Sequence record: OR525704.1
Strand: one strand, 5' to 3'
DNA length: 43,891 nucleotides
DNA from: Escherichia phage vB-Eco-KMB35
Shown: positions 4,297 through 38,291 of the stretch, piece after piece
Numbering within the stretch: position 1 is the stretch's first letter
How the letters are laid out: each line of letters opens with the position of its first letter
Translations under genes and position numbers: made by a program
The notes under the pieces: model-generated
What the model was told of the DNA's origin: nothing
The model's database searches: none
Seen by the model: only the letters and a program-made list of their open reading frames with translations

Positions 4297-4297
4297 T

Positions 4298-4326
4298 AAA
4301 AGGCCCCATTATGGGGCCTTAGTTTT
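4298..4326. terminator. Bidirectional hairpin ggcccc-attat-ggggcc between convergent genes
   Basis: GC stem flanked by A-run upstream and ttagtttt downstream. Confidence 0.6.
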
Positions 4327-4529
4327 CAACGGAATCTTGTGTTTAAATCCTGCTCATGGACAACCCTCAGAACAGTGTCATAATCCCCGTATCTTCCAGG
4401 TTCAAATATATCTAATGCCTTGTAAGCAGACATTGCGTCAGGGAAAACCTGCAGAACCTTTTTAACCCGGCACAAGTCACCGTCGAACTCTTCATCGAAC
4501 TCTTGAACTACTTCGCAAATTGCATACAT
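4326..4529 (-). CDS. Hypothetical small acidic protein (67 aa), reverse-oriented moron-like gene
   Basis: ATG at 4529 preceded by GGAGGTG RBS and the 32-bp promoter element; ends at bidirectional terminator. Confidence 0.6.
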   Translation of the reverse strand: MYAICEVVQEFDEEFDGDLCRVKKVLQVFPDAMSAYKALDIFEPGRYGDYDTVLRVVHEQDLNTRFR

Positions 4530-4553
4530 TTTTCACCTCCTGTTTAAGTTAAC

Positions 4554-4585
4554 TGAATAGTACCCTATTATATTGGGGTGTGCAA
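4554..4585 (-). promoter_or_regulatory. Promoter element family A (TTGCAC-N17-TACTAT), copy 1
   Basis: Minus-strand sense ttgcacaccccaatataatagggtactattca; 32 nt identical to 13678..13709; directly upstream of gene 4326..4529. Confidence 0.6.
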
Positions 4586-4651
4586 ACTATTTATTTACGT
4601 ATTCCAGTTATTCCTCCGAATTGTAAATGTTGGAATAAACTATTCGAATAG

Positions 4652-4904: not shown

Positions 4905-5291
4905 ATGAATCTTAAAGCAACTGTCGTAGCAGGAGCATGTTTCATCATCCTGGTTTACGCACACGGCATCTACCAGTATCGCAGCGGATGGAACGAAGGC
5001 CGGGCTAATCTCGTTTCGCAGCAACAGCAGAAAGCACAGGCTGAGTTAGCGAAGAAAACACAACGGCAGCAGCAGGATGAATCGAAGGCCGCCGCCGCTG
5101 ACAACGAAGGCAAGACGAAATCAGAGGTGATTACCCGTGAAGTCGTTAAGTACATTAAAACGCCTGGTCGCAGCGTGTGCACTTTTGACCCTGAGCGCGT
5201 GCAGCTCAAGTCCCGCGCCGTCGCCAACGCCAATTCCATCCCCGGATACGACGATGATGCAGCCGCCGTGCAAACTGGCGCAGCCAAGTAG
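4905..5291 (+). CDS. Rz-like inner-membrane spanin (i-spanin)
   Basis: 128 aa; N-terminal TM helix (VVAGACFIILVYAHGIY), Q/A/K-rich coiled coil, periplasmic Cys; overlapping +1-frame lipoprotein gene. Confidence 0.7.
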   Translation: MNLKATVVAGACFIILVYAHGIYQYRSGWNEGRANLVSQQQQKAQAELAKKTQRQQQDESKAAAADNEGKTKSEVITREVVKYIKTPGRSVCTFDPERVQLKSRAVANANSIPGYDDDAAAVQTGAAK

Positions 5292-10291: not shown

Positions 10292-10704
10292 TGGGCTACT
10301 TTGAGGACTTAACAAAAGCGTTCGATGTTCCGCTGGTAGCCTTCGGAACCGCCAACGGCATCAAGGTTGCGCTTGAAAACATCGACGCGCCGACGTCAAC
10401 CGATACGCCGTATCTGGCGAGTTACATGCTACTGGCAGATACTGAGCAGGCGGATTTGTTCTTCACTGAGCAACGCTCTGGTATTTATCAGGTAGACATT
10501 AACTACGCATCGGTGAAAGGTAGCGCGCCAATCAATAAAATGGCAGACTTACTTAACACGGCGTTTAAAGCGGGTAAGTCATTTTCGCGTAACGACATCT
10601 GCGCCGAGGTTCAATCGGTTAGCCTGGGGCCGCTGATTGTAGAAAACGGATGGGCCAAACGGCCATTGTCAATTAACTTTATAGCATTCACCAAGAGGCT
10701 GTGA
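10291..10704 (+). CDS. Tail terminator protein (putative)
   Basis: 137 aa, immediately upstream of major tail protein gene. Confidence 0.45.
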   Translation: MGYFEDLTKAFDVPLVAFGTANGIKVALENIDAPTSTDTPYLASYMLLADTEQADLFFTEQRSGIYQVDINYASVKGSAPINKMADLLNTAFKAGKSFSRNDICAEVQSVSLGPLIVENGWAKRPLSINFIAFTKRL

Positions 10705-10706
10705 AT

Positions 10707-11873
10707 ATGGCTACAACTCCTTTTAAGGGCGCGAATACCGCGCAATTCTATGTGGCGGAAGTGACCCCGGGTGTAACACCGACTAACCCGGTCTGGTCAC
10801 CATTACGTAACACGGGCGGTGTTCCTGCCATTACCCGCGACACGCTGACCTCCAACGAACTGGACGGCAGCCGTGAAACTACATCCATCCGCACCGGTAA
10901 CAAACAGGTTAGCGGTGAATACGCAATTGAGCTTAGCTCTAAAAGCCAGGACGACTGGTTAGCCGGGGCTTTAGGCTCTACGTGGCAGGCTGGCGCATCT
11001 CTGTCAGGGTTATCGATTACCGTCGCACCGGCTGGCAAGACGTTCACACGTGCCACCGGCAGCTTTATCACTGACGGAGTTGTGGTAGGCGACCTGATTG
11101 CGTTTACCGACTTAACAGGCGATAACGCAAAACCATTTATCGTTACTGCAGTAACAGCTACGGTCGTTACTGGTGCTGGTATCCAACACACCCTGACCAC
11201 CGAGACAAAAACTAGTAAGGCTAAAACTGGCGACACGCTGGAAACCGGTAACACGTGTAAGACGTTCTCTATCCTTACCTGGTACAAAGGCCAGTGCGGC
11301 GGCACTGACGCGTACACGTTAACCAAAGGCGTGGAAGTTTCTGGTTTCACTATTGAGCAGTCAGTTAACGCTATGGTAACCGGCAGCTTCCCATTCATCG
11401 GTCGCAGTCAGGAGATTCTCACTACGCCGCCGACCGGTTCCAACTTCTCATCTATTACTTTTGGTGATGAGCCATTCTCTTCGGTTGACGTTTCCGTGTT
11501 CGATGGCTCTACGCCGTTGCGTTGTGATAGCCTTACCATCACCAACGACAACAGCGCGTCCGCACAGTTCGAACTCGGCAACTCTAACGTTGCGTTTGTG
11601 GAACGTAGCCGCGCAGCTAACACCTTCTCCATCTCCGGTAAGCTGTATGACATGGCTATGATTCAGAAGTTTATCAACGAACAGCAGGTAGAGATTAACT
11701 CTATTCTGGCGGGGGTAAACGGGGCTATGTCTTTCAGTTTGAAACGTGCGGAGCTTACGGCAGTTACCCCAGAGATTGGCGGACCTGAGTCAATCACTCA
11801 GTCCATTGAAGGCCAGGCTACTGGCAACCAGTACCAGTCGTCTATTGTTATTCAGCGTATCACCTACGCATAA
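10707..11873 (+). CDS. Major tail protein
   Basis: 389 aa from ATG 10707 (RBS AAGAGG 8 nt upstream); position before chaperone/tape-measure genes; terminator downstream. Confidence 0.6.
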   Translation: MATTPFKGANTAQFYVAEVTPGVTPTNPVWSPLRNTGGVPAITRDTLTSNELDGSRETTSIRTGNKQVSGEYAIELSSKSQDDWLAGALGSTWQAGASLSGLSITVAPAGKTFTRATGSFITDGVVVGDLIAFTDLTGDNAKPFIVTAVTATVVTGAGIQHTLTTETKTSKAKTGDTLETGNTCKTFSILTWYKGQCGGTDAYTLTKGVEVSGFTIEQSVNAMVTGSFPFIGRSQEILTTPPTGSNFSSITFGDEPFSSVDVSVFDGSTPLRCDSLTITNDNSASAQFELGNSNVAFVERSRAANTFSISGKLYDMAMIQKFINEQQVEINSILAGVNGAMSFSLKRAELTAVTPEIGGPESITQSIEGQATGNQYQSSIVIQRITYA

Positions 11874-11875
11874 AA

Positions 11876-11904
11876 CTAAGGCCCCGAAAGGGGCCTTTTT
11901 TATT
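11876..11904. terminator. Bidirectional terminator ggcccc-gaaa-ggggcc followed by ttttttatt
   Basis: Perfect stem-loop between convergent major tail gene and minus-strand cassette. Confidence 0.7.
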
Positions 11905-12133
11905 ACTCATCAATGTTACTCCTGTACTCCCGTAACTTTTCCAGACTTTCAATTGCTTCCGCTAAGTCGGTTCCGGTGTCCTTGTGTCCACGTAAACCCA
12001 TGCACAATAGCTTCTTCAATGCGTGCTGTAACGCCGGGTCGCGGATGTCGAAAGCGCGGAGCACATCATAAACGTCTACTGTCATAGTGCTGCCGTGAGT
12101 GTTTGTCATTGTTCGGTTGTATTTTGAAGTCAT
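11903..12133 (-). CDS. Hypothetical protein (76 aa), last gene of reverse cassette
   Basis: ORF overlapping stop of upstream gene (12130), ends at terminator. Confidence 0.5.
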   Translation of the reverse strand: MTSKYNRTMTNTHGSTMTVDVYDVLRAFDIRDPALQHALKKLLCMGLRGHKDTGTDLAEAIESLEKLREYRSNIDE

Positions 12134-13260
12134 CCCAGCATCTCCGGTGAAATAGTTAAACGTGCGACCTCGCCATATTCGGCGCTATAAGTAATTACAT
12201 TTGCACTACGGCCTGACATCCACCCGCCGCGGGAGGCATAGGCGTCTTTAGCCGCTAAGGTGCGGTGTTGCTCAACAATCATGTTACGGCTTTCTACAAT
12301 CTTCTGGTGGTGCAGGTGGCCTACGTGGGCGTAGCTATAGACACTCTCACCGAACGCTTTGCGGAATTTGGCAATCATAACCGGTTCGATAGCATCGAAT
12401 CGCGCCTTATGCCCGTGGTGAAAGAACAACGTCGTTTTTCCGTGTTGCACCATCTTGTAAACATCCGGCGACGTATCGACAATCACTCGGCTGTCGTTCG
12501 AATATAAAACTGTGAACATTTCAGCCAGCCATACAGAGCCTACAGGGTCATGGTTCCCCTGTACGATAAGCAAGCGAACATTTTTATGTTTAACCAGTGC
12601 CATATCTACAACACGGCGTACCATACGAATCATGTAGCGGACGAGTTTCTGGTAGCGAGTGTCTGCGTCCAACACGTGACGCGACTCAGGTGTAACGGCA
12701 TCCAGACTATCGAAGTGCGCGAAATCACCCAGCAGGTTAATAACTCCTGTTCCTGCATCCGGTGCTTTCTGAAACGCCGCGTCGAACCAACGAGAGAACA
12801 GGTCTTCCGCAATCTTTATATCCCAGTCGTCGCCGCTCTCGTCGGCCCAGGCAAGCATACCGAGATGGAAATCAGATACCGTGTAAAGATTGAGTAGCTT
12901 GTCGTCGCGTTTGGCTCGAGTCGCTTTAGCCGGCGCAACTGGCGTAATCTCTGACTTCATGCCTTCAATCACGGCTTTCATCAACTCGACCTGACGTTCA
13001 GCGTCGGTGTCTGTCTTAACCCATTGCAACTTAGTATTGCCGAACTCGTCTACCAGAGACGACGTCCCTTTAATCTTGTAGCCGTCTGGGACAAGGTGGC
13101 TAACGTCACGCCCGTGGCCTACACCTTTCTTAGCCAGCTTCGCTTTACGGATACGAATAACTCGGTCTGAGATGCCGTATTTACGGGCGATGTCTACATT
13201 CTTCATCCCGGCGTTCAATTCTTCCTGTAACTGTTCGTCGGTTATTTTCTTCTGGGCCAT
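12130..13260 (-). CDS. HTH-domain / calcineurin-like metallophosphoesterase fusion protein
   Basis: 376 aa; N-terminal HTH (NVDIARKYGISDRVIRIRKAK); phosphoesterase motifs SDFHLG, LGDFAHFD, GNHD, HHGH, GHLHH in canonical order. Confidence 0.6.
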   Translation of the reverse strand: MAQKKITDEQLQEELNAGMKNVDIARKYGISDRVIRIRKAKLAKKGVGHGRDVSHLVPDGYKIKGTSSLVDEFGNTKLQWVKTDTDAERQVELMKAVIEGMKSEITPVAPAKATRAKRDDKLLNLYTVSDFHLGMLAWADESGDDWDIKIAEDLFSRWFDAAFQKAPDAGTGVINLLGDFAHFDSLDAVTPESRHVLDADTRYQKLVRYMIRMVRRVVDMALVKHKNVRLLIVQGNHDPVGSVWLAEMFTVLYSNDSRVIVDTSPDVYKMVQHGKTTLFFHHGHKARFDAIEPVMIAKFRKAFGESVYSYAHVGHLHHQKIVESRNMIVEQHRTLAAKDAYASRGGWMSGRSANVITYSAEYGEVARLTISPEMLG

Positions 13261-13325
13261 GCTTACTTCCTCGTGTTTAGGATTTGTCCTATTTAACCAC
13301 AGTGGATTCCTTTAAATAAAGGCAA

Positions 13326-13652
13326 CTATTTACTTTCTGCGCCTATCGCCCACCCTGTCATTACCATTTGCAGACGGGTGGCTGTCAGTAGGCTATAGAA
13401 AGCATCTCCGTTTTTCTCTACCGAACGTATCACTGTGTAGGTTACGGCCTGCGGGGGTAGGCCCGATTTACCAACCTCCACGGCGGCCTCACACTCGCGA
13501 ACTGTAGAGTCCTTGAACGCCTTTACAATAGTAGGGTCGGCTTTATCAAGCACACCAGAAGTCATAAGAACAGATTCACTAAATACCTGTTCGCACGGGG
13601 CTCCAAAAGTAGCAAAAGACATAAAACCCAGAGCTAGTACTAATTTACGCAT
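13326..13652 (-). CDS. Secreted/periplasmic protein (108 aa) with N-terminal signal peptide
   Basis: MRKLVLALGFMSFATFGA signal-like N-terminus; promoter element directly upstream. Confidence 0.55.
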   Translation of the reverse strand: MRKLVLALGFMSFATFGAPCEQVFSESVLMTSGVLDKADPTIVKAFKDSTVRECEAAVEVGKSGLPPQAVTYTVIRSVEKNGDAFYSLLTATRLQMVMTGWAIGAESK

Positions 13653-13677
13653 AATTATTTCCTCAGTAAGTTACATG

Positions 13678-13709
13678 TGAATAGTACCCTATTATATTGG
13701 GGTGTGCAA
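13678..13709 (-). promoter_or_regulatory. Promoter element family A, copy 2 (identical to 4554..4585)
   Basis: 32-nt exact repeat; TTGCAC-N17-TACTAT in minus-strand sense, upstream of 13652 start. Confidence 0.6.
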
Positions 13710-13816
13710 GTAGTGTGCTAGAATAAGTTTGCGCCTAGTGTCGCACACGAAAAGCGGGTGGTTCCCGCCTGGCGCATTAACCATAACCAGTAACCTCTTA
13801 ACCAAAGGACTAAAGA

Positions 13817-14233
13817 ATGAAACTTTCTGATTTCTATTTTGCCGACCGCCACGCCGCCGGTACTAAAATGCCTATCCTTCTGCCCAGTGGTAAAGATTCC
13901 GGTGAATGGTTGCAGGTCATCGGCCCCGATTGTGACGCTGGTGTTCGTGCGGGCCGTGCCTACACCACGGCAATTCGACGCCTTACGGAAGAACTTGCGC
14001 CATTAGATAAAGAGTGCGAGGCGCTGAATAACTGGGCGCGCTATAATGATGAGAAGGGCTGGCGGGTGATGGACCTGAACAAGCAGCTTGCCGTGGAAAT
14101 CGTCACCGGTTGGTCATTCGACGAACCATTCAGCAAAGAGGCGCTTGCTAACCTGTTCGACCAGTACAGTGGGTTGGCAGAGGCCGTAGTTAAGCATCAC
14201 ACCGATAGCCGTGAGAAACTCTCGGAAAAGTAA
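13817..14233 (+). CDS. Tail assembly chaperone (G-like)
   Basis: 138 aa immediately upstream of tape measure gene; overlapping -1 frame ORF downstream. Confidence 0.6.
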   Translation: MKLSDFYFADRHAAGTKMPILLPSGKDSGEWLQVIGPDCDAGVRAGRAYTTAIRRLTEELAPLDKECEALNNWARYNDEKGWRVMDLNKQLAVEIVTGWSFDEPFSKEALANLFDQYSGLAEAVVKHHTDSREKLSEK

Positions 14234-37091: not shown

Positions 37092-37123
37092 TTGCACACC
37101 CCAACATAATAGGATACTATTCA
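37092..37123 (+). promoter_or_regulatory. Promoter element family A (TTGCAC-N17-TACTAT), copy 3, rightward early promoter
   Basis: 30/32 identity to copies at 4554 and 13678 in opposite orientation; 30 nt upstream of ORF 37155. Confidence 0.6.
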
Positions 37124-38259: not shown

Positions 38260-38291
38260 TTGCACACTAATATAGAGTAGGCTACTATTCA
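38260..38291 (+). promoter_or_regulatory. Promoter element family A variant (TTGCAC-N17-TACTAT), copy 4
   Basis: Same hexamers and spacing; TACTATTCA core; 28 nt upstream of ORF 38320. Confidence 0.5.

Follow-up and report, generated by a model that had tools for sequence, protein, structure and literature searches.

An antisense island with a widespread metallophosphoesterase and exchangeable cargo within the late structural operon of a Kagunavirus phage

Mre11, SbcD and the PolD subunit DP1 are DNA nucleases of the calcineurin-like metallophosphoesterase fold. Phage proteins of PHROG 704, including CPTT1_064 of phage T1, carry the family name 'DNA repair exonuclease', an annotation label that is not biochemically grounded in the literature searched. 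In mycobacteriophage A10ZJ24, a further metallophosphoesterase, Gp48, is an early product that damages host DNA, through which defence genes are silenced (PMC12287305). Here we describe a 376-amino-acid (aa) member of PHROG 704 encoded, with two smaller proteins, in an antisense island among the tail genes of Escherichia phage vB-Eco-KMB35 (sequence record OR525704.1), the whole 43,891-nucleotide stretch of which is referred to below as the window. Comparison of the region 11700-13900 identified the window as a complete genome of the genus Kagunavirus (subfamily Guernseyvirinae), with 99.4% identity to Escherichia phage GertrudWoker_Bas73 (BASEL phage Bas73) and 89-98% to many other Kagunavirus phages; in all, 362 phage records matched the region, chiefly those of Salmonella and Escherichia siphophages. 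Kagunavirus phages are small, virulent siphophages dependent on O-antigen, and are covered in the BASEL completion paper (PMC11990801). The island is an ordinary, already annotated feature of Kagunavirus and Jerseyvirus phages, centred on a very common nuclease-like enzyme. The best explanation overall, which we hold to be probable by a narrow measure, is that of an early island, read by the host polymerase, in which a DNA-acting nuclease is combined with exchangeable cargo.

The island comprises three minus-strand open reading frames (ORFs) running against the structural operon and encoding, in order of transcription, a 108-aa protein (13326..13652), the 376-aa protein (12130..13260) and a 76-aa protein (11903..12133). 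Each begins with ATG and is preceded by a Shine-Dalgarno-like sequence (GAGGAA for the first two, GGAG for the third), and the second and third genes overlap by 4 nucleotides (nt; 12130-12133). On either side lie the plus-strand genes for the tail tube protein (10701..11873; PF18906, E 2.7e-37) and the tail assembly chaperone (13817..14233; PF08748, E 1e-8), so that both the coordinates and the flanking tail genes were exactly those of a first-pass annotation made from the letters of the window. The ratio of non-synonymous to synonymous substitution rates (dN/dS) against Kagunavirus and Jerseyvirus orthologues was 0.00-0.08 for all three genes (0.00-0.05 for the 76-aa gene), indicative of strong purifying selection. 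Judged from these sequence comparisons, the three ORFs are real genes.

A predicted promoter element for the island was found on the minus strand at 13678..13709, consisting of TTGCAC-N17-TACTAT (13681..13709) together with a conserved TTCA. This motif occurs four times in the window, as compared with 0.14 occurrences expected by chance, and a motif scan placed the other copies at 4557-4585 (minus strand), 37092-37120 (plus) and 38260-38288 (plus). The 32-base-pair (bp) core, including the spacer, is conserved among the copies, and each copy is followed, after 25-35 nt, by a ribosome-binding site with its start codon. The copies at 37092 and 38260 precede clusters of small early-type ORFs, and the island promoter is retained in Kagunavirus relatives and in part in Jerseyvirus. 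All four copies sit in divergent intergenic regions. An operator-like palindrome considered in the promoter spacer was rejected, the dyad symmetry being equalled by 158 of 2000 shuffles and hence not significant. At its other end, between the tail-tube gene and the island, a GC-rich hairpin at 11878..11897 was predicted by terminator scanning and folding to be a bidirectional intrinsic terminator. It was detected on both strands, with free energies of -16.3 kcal/mol on the plus strand (z -4.1) and -17.3 kcal/mol on the minus strand (z -3.7); none of 200 shuffles folded as well, and the T-run was cleaner on the plus strand. The proposals that the island has its own copy of the promoter and ends at a terminator serving both directions were thus borne out at the level of sequence.

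The 376-aa protein matched the PHROG 704 profile over its full length (E 1.5e-162; residues 3-375 against positions 1-389 of 390), while its matches to Pfam Metallophos and Metallophos_2 fell below thresholds. The five phosphoesterase motifs reported in the first-pass annotation were all present and in canonical order, namely SDFHLG (129-134), LGDFAHFD (177-184), GNHD (235-238), HHGH (281-284) and GHLHH (314-318). Across 66 diverse homologues, D130, H132, G178, D179, N236, H237, H282, G314 and H317 were invariant, and H182, H284 and H315 nearly so; from these residues the active site looks intact. A structure model of high confidence (predicted local distance difference test, pLDDT, 92.7; predicted template modelling score, pTM, 0.81) resolved a three-helix N-terminal module (8-44), a beta-hairpin with a helix (61-102) and a phosphoesterase core (119-376), the last of these having the beta-alpha-beta-alpha-beta sandwich fold of calcineurin-like binuclear metallophosphoesterases.

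The nearest folds to the core were those of PolD-DP1, SbcD and Mre11, at a sequence identity of just 12-18%. The core carries the features of the Mre11/SbcD nuclease branch, with a motif II of the form GDxxH/D and a catalytic His in motif III, and neither the GDxxDRG motif II, the GNHE motif III nor the fold of PPP-type (lambda) Ser/Thr phosphatases was found in it. The proposed likeness to Mre11 and SbcD therefore holds for the core. It does not extend to the accessory parts: the model contains no C-terminal capping domain or Rad50-binding helices, the approximately 60 residues after motif VI being core strands, and neither the annotation of Bas73 nor a Pfam scan of the window's large ORFs revealed a gene for a Rad50/SbcC (or DP2) partner. 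Where Mre11 and SbcD have C-terminal additions, the window protein has instead a predicted N-terminal helix-turn-helix (HTH) and a hairpin domain. The N-terminal HTH, which had also been proposed, would correspond to the three-helix module of the model, although the corresponding GerE/LuxR sequence matches were sub-threshold (GerE, E 0.026 with the whole protein and 0.0019 with the N-terminus alone; family profile against the GerE structure 1fse, E 0.079).

A tblastn search recovered homologues of the 376-aa protein from 2042 phage records, with full-length matches in 1960, extending from Dhillonvirus (73% identity) and T1 (44% across 100% of the protein) to Klebsiella T1-like, Vibrio and Alteromonas phages and an N4-like roseophage, and an exhaustive search yielded 4567 related cluster representatives at E <= 1e-3. 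The HTH-metallophosphoesterases are among the most widespread uncharacterised enzyme families of T1-like, Dhillonvirus, Guernseyvirinae and marine siphophages, and literature searches for functional work on the family in T1-like or Guernseyvirinae phages gave nothing relevant. CPTT1_064 and Bas73_0023 resemble the window protein in architecture, length (approximately 375-400 aa) and catalytic motifs. Their settings differ, however, in that the T1 gene, annotated 'exonuclease', is co-directional with, and follows, the helicase, resolvase and Dam genes of a replication/recombination module, whereas the window gene lies in an antisense island amid tail genes.

Other neighbourhoods of the phosphoesterase gene were equally diverse. 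In Dhillonvirus it is flanked by the genes for lysin and small terminase, and in the N4-like Roseovarius Plymouth podovirus 1 a homologue of 26% identity (locus L014, 2950-4110) adjoins the genes for dCMP deaminase and ThyX; this homologue is annotated as a 'structural protein'. In K1H the gene is followed by one for a PNKP-type HAD phosphatase (PF25109, E 6.7e-20) and then by one for a P-loop protein matching a deoxynucleoside monophosphate (dNMP) kinase PHROG family. In VSiP (L011), the one Cornellvirus examined, it is found not in the tail slot but in another antisense island, which is bordered by genes for head morphogenesis and spanins. Such contexts link the phosphoesterase to the metabolism of DNA and nucleotides and not to accessory functions in defence. 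The gene had initially been regarded as accessory; it proved to be a widely conserved gene of core type, found elsewhere in replication or nucleotide-metabolism modules. An HNH endonuclease gene lies directly 3' of it in T1 (L005, 5207-5689), Jerseyvirus ZCSE9 (L006, 3671-4171), a Vibrio phage (L015, 4741-5250) and 590B (L004, 1947-2417), and the T1 and ZCSE9 endonucleases share 61% identity, which suggests that homing elements use the conserved phosphoesterase gene as a landing site. Among Jerseyviruses two diverged alleles of the phosphoesterase occur, with 54% and 86% identity to that of the window, and homing at the gene may explain them.

All of the Kagunavirus and Jerseyvirus loci examined had, between the genes for the tail tube and the chaperone, an antisense island with the phosphoesterase. 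The phosphoesterase is its one constant gene, and the flanking cargo is sporadic. Like lambda-type morons, the island of the window is an autonomous promoter-gene-terminator unit with variable cargo in a late operon. In contrast to morons, however, it occurs in a virulent phage, is built around a conserved DNA-metabolism gene, is a fixed feature of the two genera sampled and is not anomalous in composition (GC content 0.47-0.53, as against 0.49-0.54 in the flanks). The moron-like architecture suggested for it is thus apt as regards its own promoter and terminator, and not as regards recent acquisition. Matches on plasmids amounted to a handful, mostly in phage-sized non-mobilizable records. 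None of the three proteins resembles virion or assembly proteins, as had been anticipated.

On the explanation favoured here, the island would be an independent transcription unit lying antisense within the Kagunavirus late structural operon. It would be transcribed from a host sigma-70-type promoter at 13681-13709 and closed by the hairpin at 11878-11897, which would also end the tail-tube transcript. The 376-aa protein would act on DNA early in infection as a metal-dependent nuclease without a Rad50-type partner, its likeliest roles being the processing, in replication and recombination, of DNA ends or intermediates, the degradation of host DNA for nucleotide salvage, or both. The first slot would hold small envelope-targeted proteins, in this case a Sec-exported and probably disulfide-bonded helical protein of 108 aa, and the last slot in the window would hold the 76-aa domain protein as exchangeable cargo. 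This explanation builds directly on the observed gene structure, conservation, fold class, catalytic residues, repeated promoter and terminator and variability of the slots; the substrate of the nuclease and the functions of both small proteins are what we infer beyond these. The early timing is suggested by a single feature, the presence of the same 32-bp promoter ahead of early-type clusters of small genes.

Several points weigh against this explanation. The literature searched contained no transcriptome of any Guernseyvirinae phage, so that early timing relies on promoter likeness, and likewise held no biochemical characterisation of any PHROG 704-type phosphoesterase. The HTH assignment draws on the model together with sub-threshold GerE matches. 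Gp48 of A10ZJ24 is likewise a phage metallophosphoesterase with five conserved motifs and is a plausible functional analogue (PMC12287305), yet its motif I lies near residue 10, which leaves no room for an N-terminal HTH, and the two are likened here at the superfamily level; A10ZJ24 also belongs to another phage group and infects another host. Finally, the role in superinfection exclusion guessed for the 108-aa protein is positional only, its fold being without an informative neighbour.

The analogy with Gp48 could be carried further, to an island dedicated to early takeover of the host, in which an Mre11-like nuclease, tethered by the HTH and independent of Rad50, would nick the host chromosome or cut it to pieces, feeding nucleotide salvage and silencing inducible defences, while the 108-aa periplasmic protein would represent a new class of superinfection-exclusion protein replacing a T4 Imm-like one. 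We consider this unlikely; if true, it would be a strategy common to more than 2000 phages carrying the 376-aa family. A different chemistry could be envisaged from the K1H-type phages, in which the genes for the PNKP-type HAD phosphatase (PF25109) and the P-loop kinase-like protein directly follow the phosphoesterase gene. The phosphoesterase would then be a 2',3'-cyclic or 3'-phosphate esterase that, with PNKP functions, mends the ends of tRNA or DNA that defence nucleases of the host have cut. The Pnkp of Clostridium thermocellum uses a metallophosphoesterase domain in end healing. However, the kinase and phosphatase are absent from the window and from most relatives sampled, the near-identical Bas73 has no annotated ligase, the K1H P-loop protein fits a dNMP-kinase PHROG family and not a PNK kinase, and the closest folds are nucleases rather than lambda-phosphatase-like enzymes, all of which makes end healing distinctly improbable. 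The same structural matches to DNA nucleases argue against hydrolysis of small signalling nucleotides, such as cyclic oligonucleotides or signals of the cyclic ADP-ribose type, by which the phosphoesterase would counter CBASS, Pycsar or Thoeris. With its conserved HTH and hairpin domains at the N-terminus, the protein would seem to be an enzyme bound to DNA, the gene contexts are those of DNA and nucleotide metabolism, and no notable defence resistance was reported for the BASEL Kagunavirus phages (PMC11990801); such a role appears slightly less probable again than end healing.

The first-pass annotation had proposed that the three genes form one undescribed system, and on this account they would act together in anti-defence or superinfection exclusion, having been gained as a moron. 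Their common promoter and terminator, antisense orientation and lack of relation to virion proteins would fit, as would the Imm-like genes in the first slot of relatives. Against this, the three distributions are unequal and independent, homologues of the 376-aa protein being found in 2042 phage records, those of the 76-aa protein in 773 and those of the 108-aa protein in 98. In T1, Dhillonvirus, Vibrio phages and Cornellvirus neither of the small genes accompanies the phosphoesterase; the first gene is missing from JSSK01 and the third from K1H. The base composition is like that of the neighbours, PADLOC returned no match for any of the three proteins, and the genes are already annotated in public genomes: in Bas73 as a hypothetical protein, a 'DNA repair exonuclease' (Bas73_0023) and a hypothetical protein, and likewise with annotations in dozens of further published genomes. 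Because of these independent distributions and the existing annotation, the undescribed three-gene system is unsupported, and we regard a co-functional module as very unlikely. Least probable of the explanations considered is that the protein is mainly a transcriptional regulator, for instance of an early-to-late switch at the 32-bp promoters, with the phosphoesterase domain as a sensor or scaffold. Such a function would agree with the sub-threshold GerE/LuxR-like HTH and with the conservation of the spacer among the promoter copies, as well as with a PHROG family named 'late transcriptional activator' that the protein matches weakly (E 8.8e-4). The catalytic metal ligands are, however, invariant across divergent homologues, which indicates an enzyme, the dyad symmetry of the promoter spacer was not significant, as mentioned above, and the family is also found in phages with unrelated promoters, such as VSiP.

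The 108-aa protein, which corresponds to phrog_14165, is confined to Guernseyvirinae, being found in 98 phage records and in 22 clusters among 5.8 billion proteins. As noted at first sight of the sequence, its N-terminus resembles a signal peptide by simple rules, with MRK, a 13-residue hydrophobic core and candidate AxA-type cleavage sites after residues 14 or 17; no lipobox was found in it. Two cysteines are invariant in the family, consistent with a periplasmic location. The model was all-helical and of moderate confidence (pLDDT 76.8), and no informative structural neighbour of the fold was found. Thirteen members of the family gave no Pfam match at E up to 10, and the DUF3718 label on a Jerseyvirus homologue is accordingly unsupported.

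The first slot holds the 108-aa gene in the window, K1H, fFiEco02, 590B and ZCSE9, and no credible gene in JSSK01. In PBSE191 it is occupied by a gene (L010, 2259-2438) for a 59-aa two-helix membrane protein of the Imm_superinfect family (PF14373, E 3.5e-15). This Imm-like gene was present at >=80% identity in approximately 267 phage records, including many Jerseyvirus and some Kagunavirus phages, and its distant homologues are annotated as Imm in T4-like phages. The T4 Imm-type proteins thus share with the 108-aa protein the promoter-proximal slot and a targeting to the envelope that for the latter is predicted. The two differ in that Imm-type proteins are two-helix membrane proteins of approximately 59 aa, whereas the 108-aa protein appears soluble, exported and helical, with a conserved Cys pair, and there is no sequence similarity between them; the window contained no Imm homologue and nothing similar to the Jerseyvirus Imm protein. 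Because the 108-aa gene alternates with an Imm-like gene in the first slot, and purely for that reason, superinfection exclusion is our best guess for the 108-aa protein. The superinfection-exclusion idea, which had been raised for the island from the outset, thereby gains support from position.

The 76-aa protein matched the C-terminal part of the phrog_2452 and phrog_17613 profiles, and its homologues, found in 773 phage records, are mostly stand-alone proteins with lengths of 70-127 aa and in some cases make up the C-terminal part of a larger protein. A Pfam search with the 76-aa protein gave no match, and a DUF3310 label for it is unsupported. Although the 76-aa gene had been described as a part of the cassette, it is one of several interchangeable occupants of the distal slot. 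In the window it stands there alone, while elsewhere it is accompanied by a 66-aa gene, an HNH gene or a Rha/Ant-type gene, or is missing in favour of the phosphatase and kinase-like pair. In the K1H-type slot (L002, 1703-2742) the PNKP-type HAD phosphatase and the dNMP-kinase-like P-loop protein replace it, and the breaks in the DNA alignment between K1H and the window fall precisely at the terminator and where the phosphoesterase gene has its stop codon. The 76-aa gene was also considered as a remnant of the K1H ATP-binding gene, and this was rejected, as the two proteins are not similar and the alignment of the DNA ends exactly at the slot.

The widespread HTH-phosphoesterase family and the slot in which Imm-like and 108-aa genes alternate are what make the locus worth pursuing. 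The BASEL Kagunavirus phages render the enzyme family genetically tractable in E. coli K-12, and with its substrate known it would be clearer how host DNA, recombination or defence is dealt with by small virulent siphophages. The alternating slot offers a simple natural experiment for new superinfection-exclusion proteins.

Some minor features of the window were also recorded. Short ORFs of 41-44 aa (Bas73_0025, JSSK01_32 and, in the window, 13718-13852 on the minus strand) overlie the conserved promoter and intergenic region; those of Bas73 and JSSK01 overlap the conserved promoter and appear to be spurious annotation artefacts. The leader of the tail chaperone gene (13740-13785) contains a GCGGG-N5-CCCGC hairpin whose sequence is kept from Kagunavirus to Jerseyvirus. 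As a stable structure this hairpin (approximately 13754-13770) was rejected, with z-scores of 0.04 and -1.0 against shuffles, and is not unusually stable. Within the head module, at 4297-4590, there is another antisense island, with a 67-aa ORF at 4326..4529 on the minus strand; it is in this slot that VSiP carries its HTH-metallophosphoesterase gene. Its promoter (4557-4585) is an identical copy of the 32-bp element, and the stem of its terminator hairpin (4300-4320) is nearly the same as that at 11878-11897. Beside this island, and still inside the head module, Rz-like spanin genes were located on the plus strand at 4905-5291 by way of the Bas73 annotation, far from the holin and endolysin genes, which lie near 40-41 kb.

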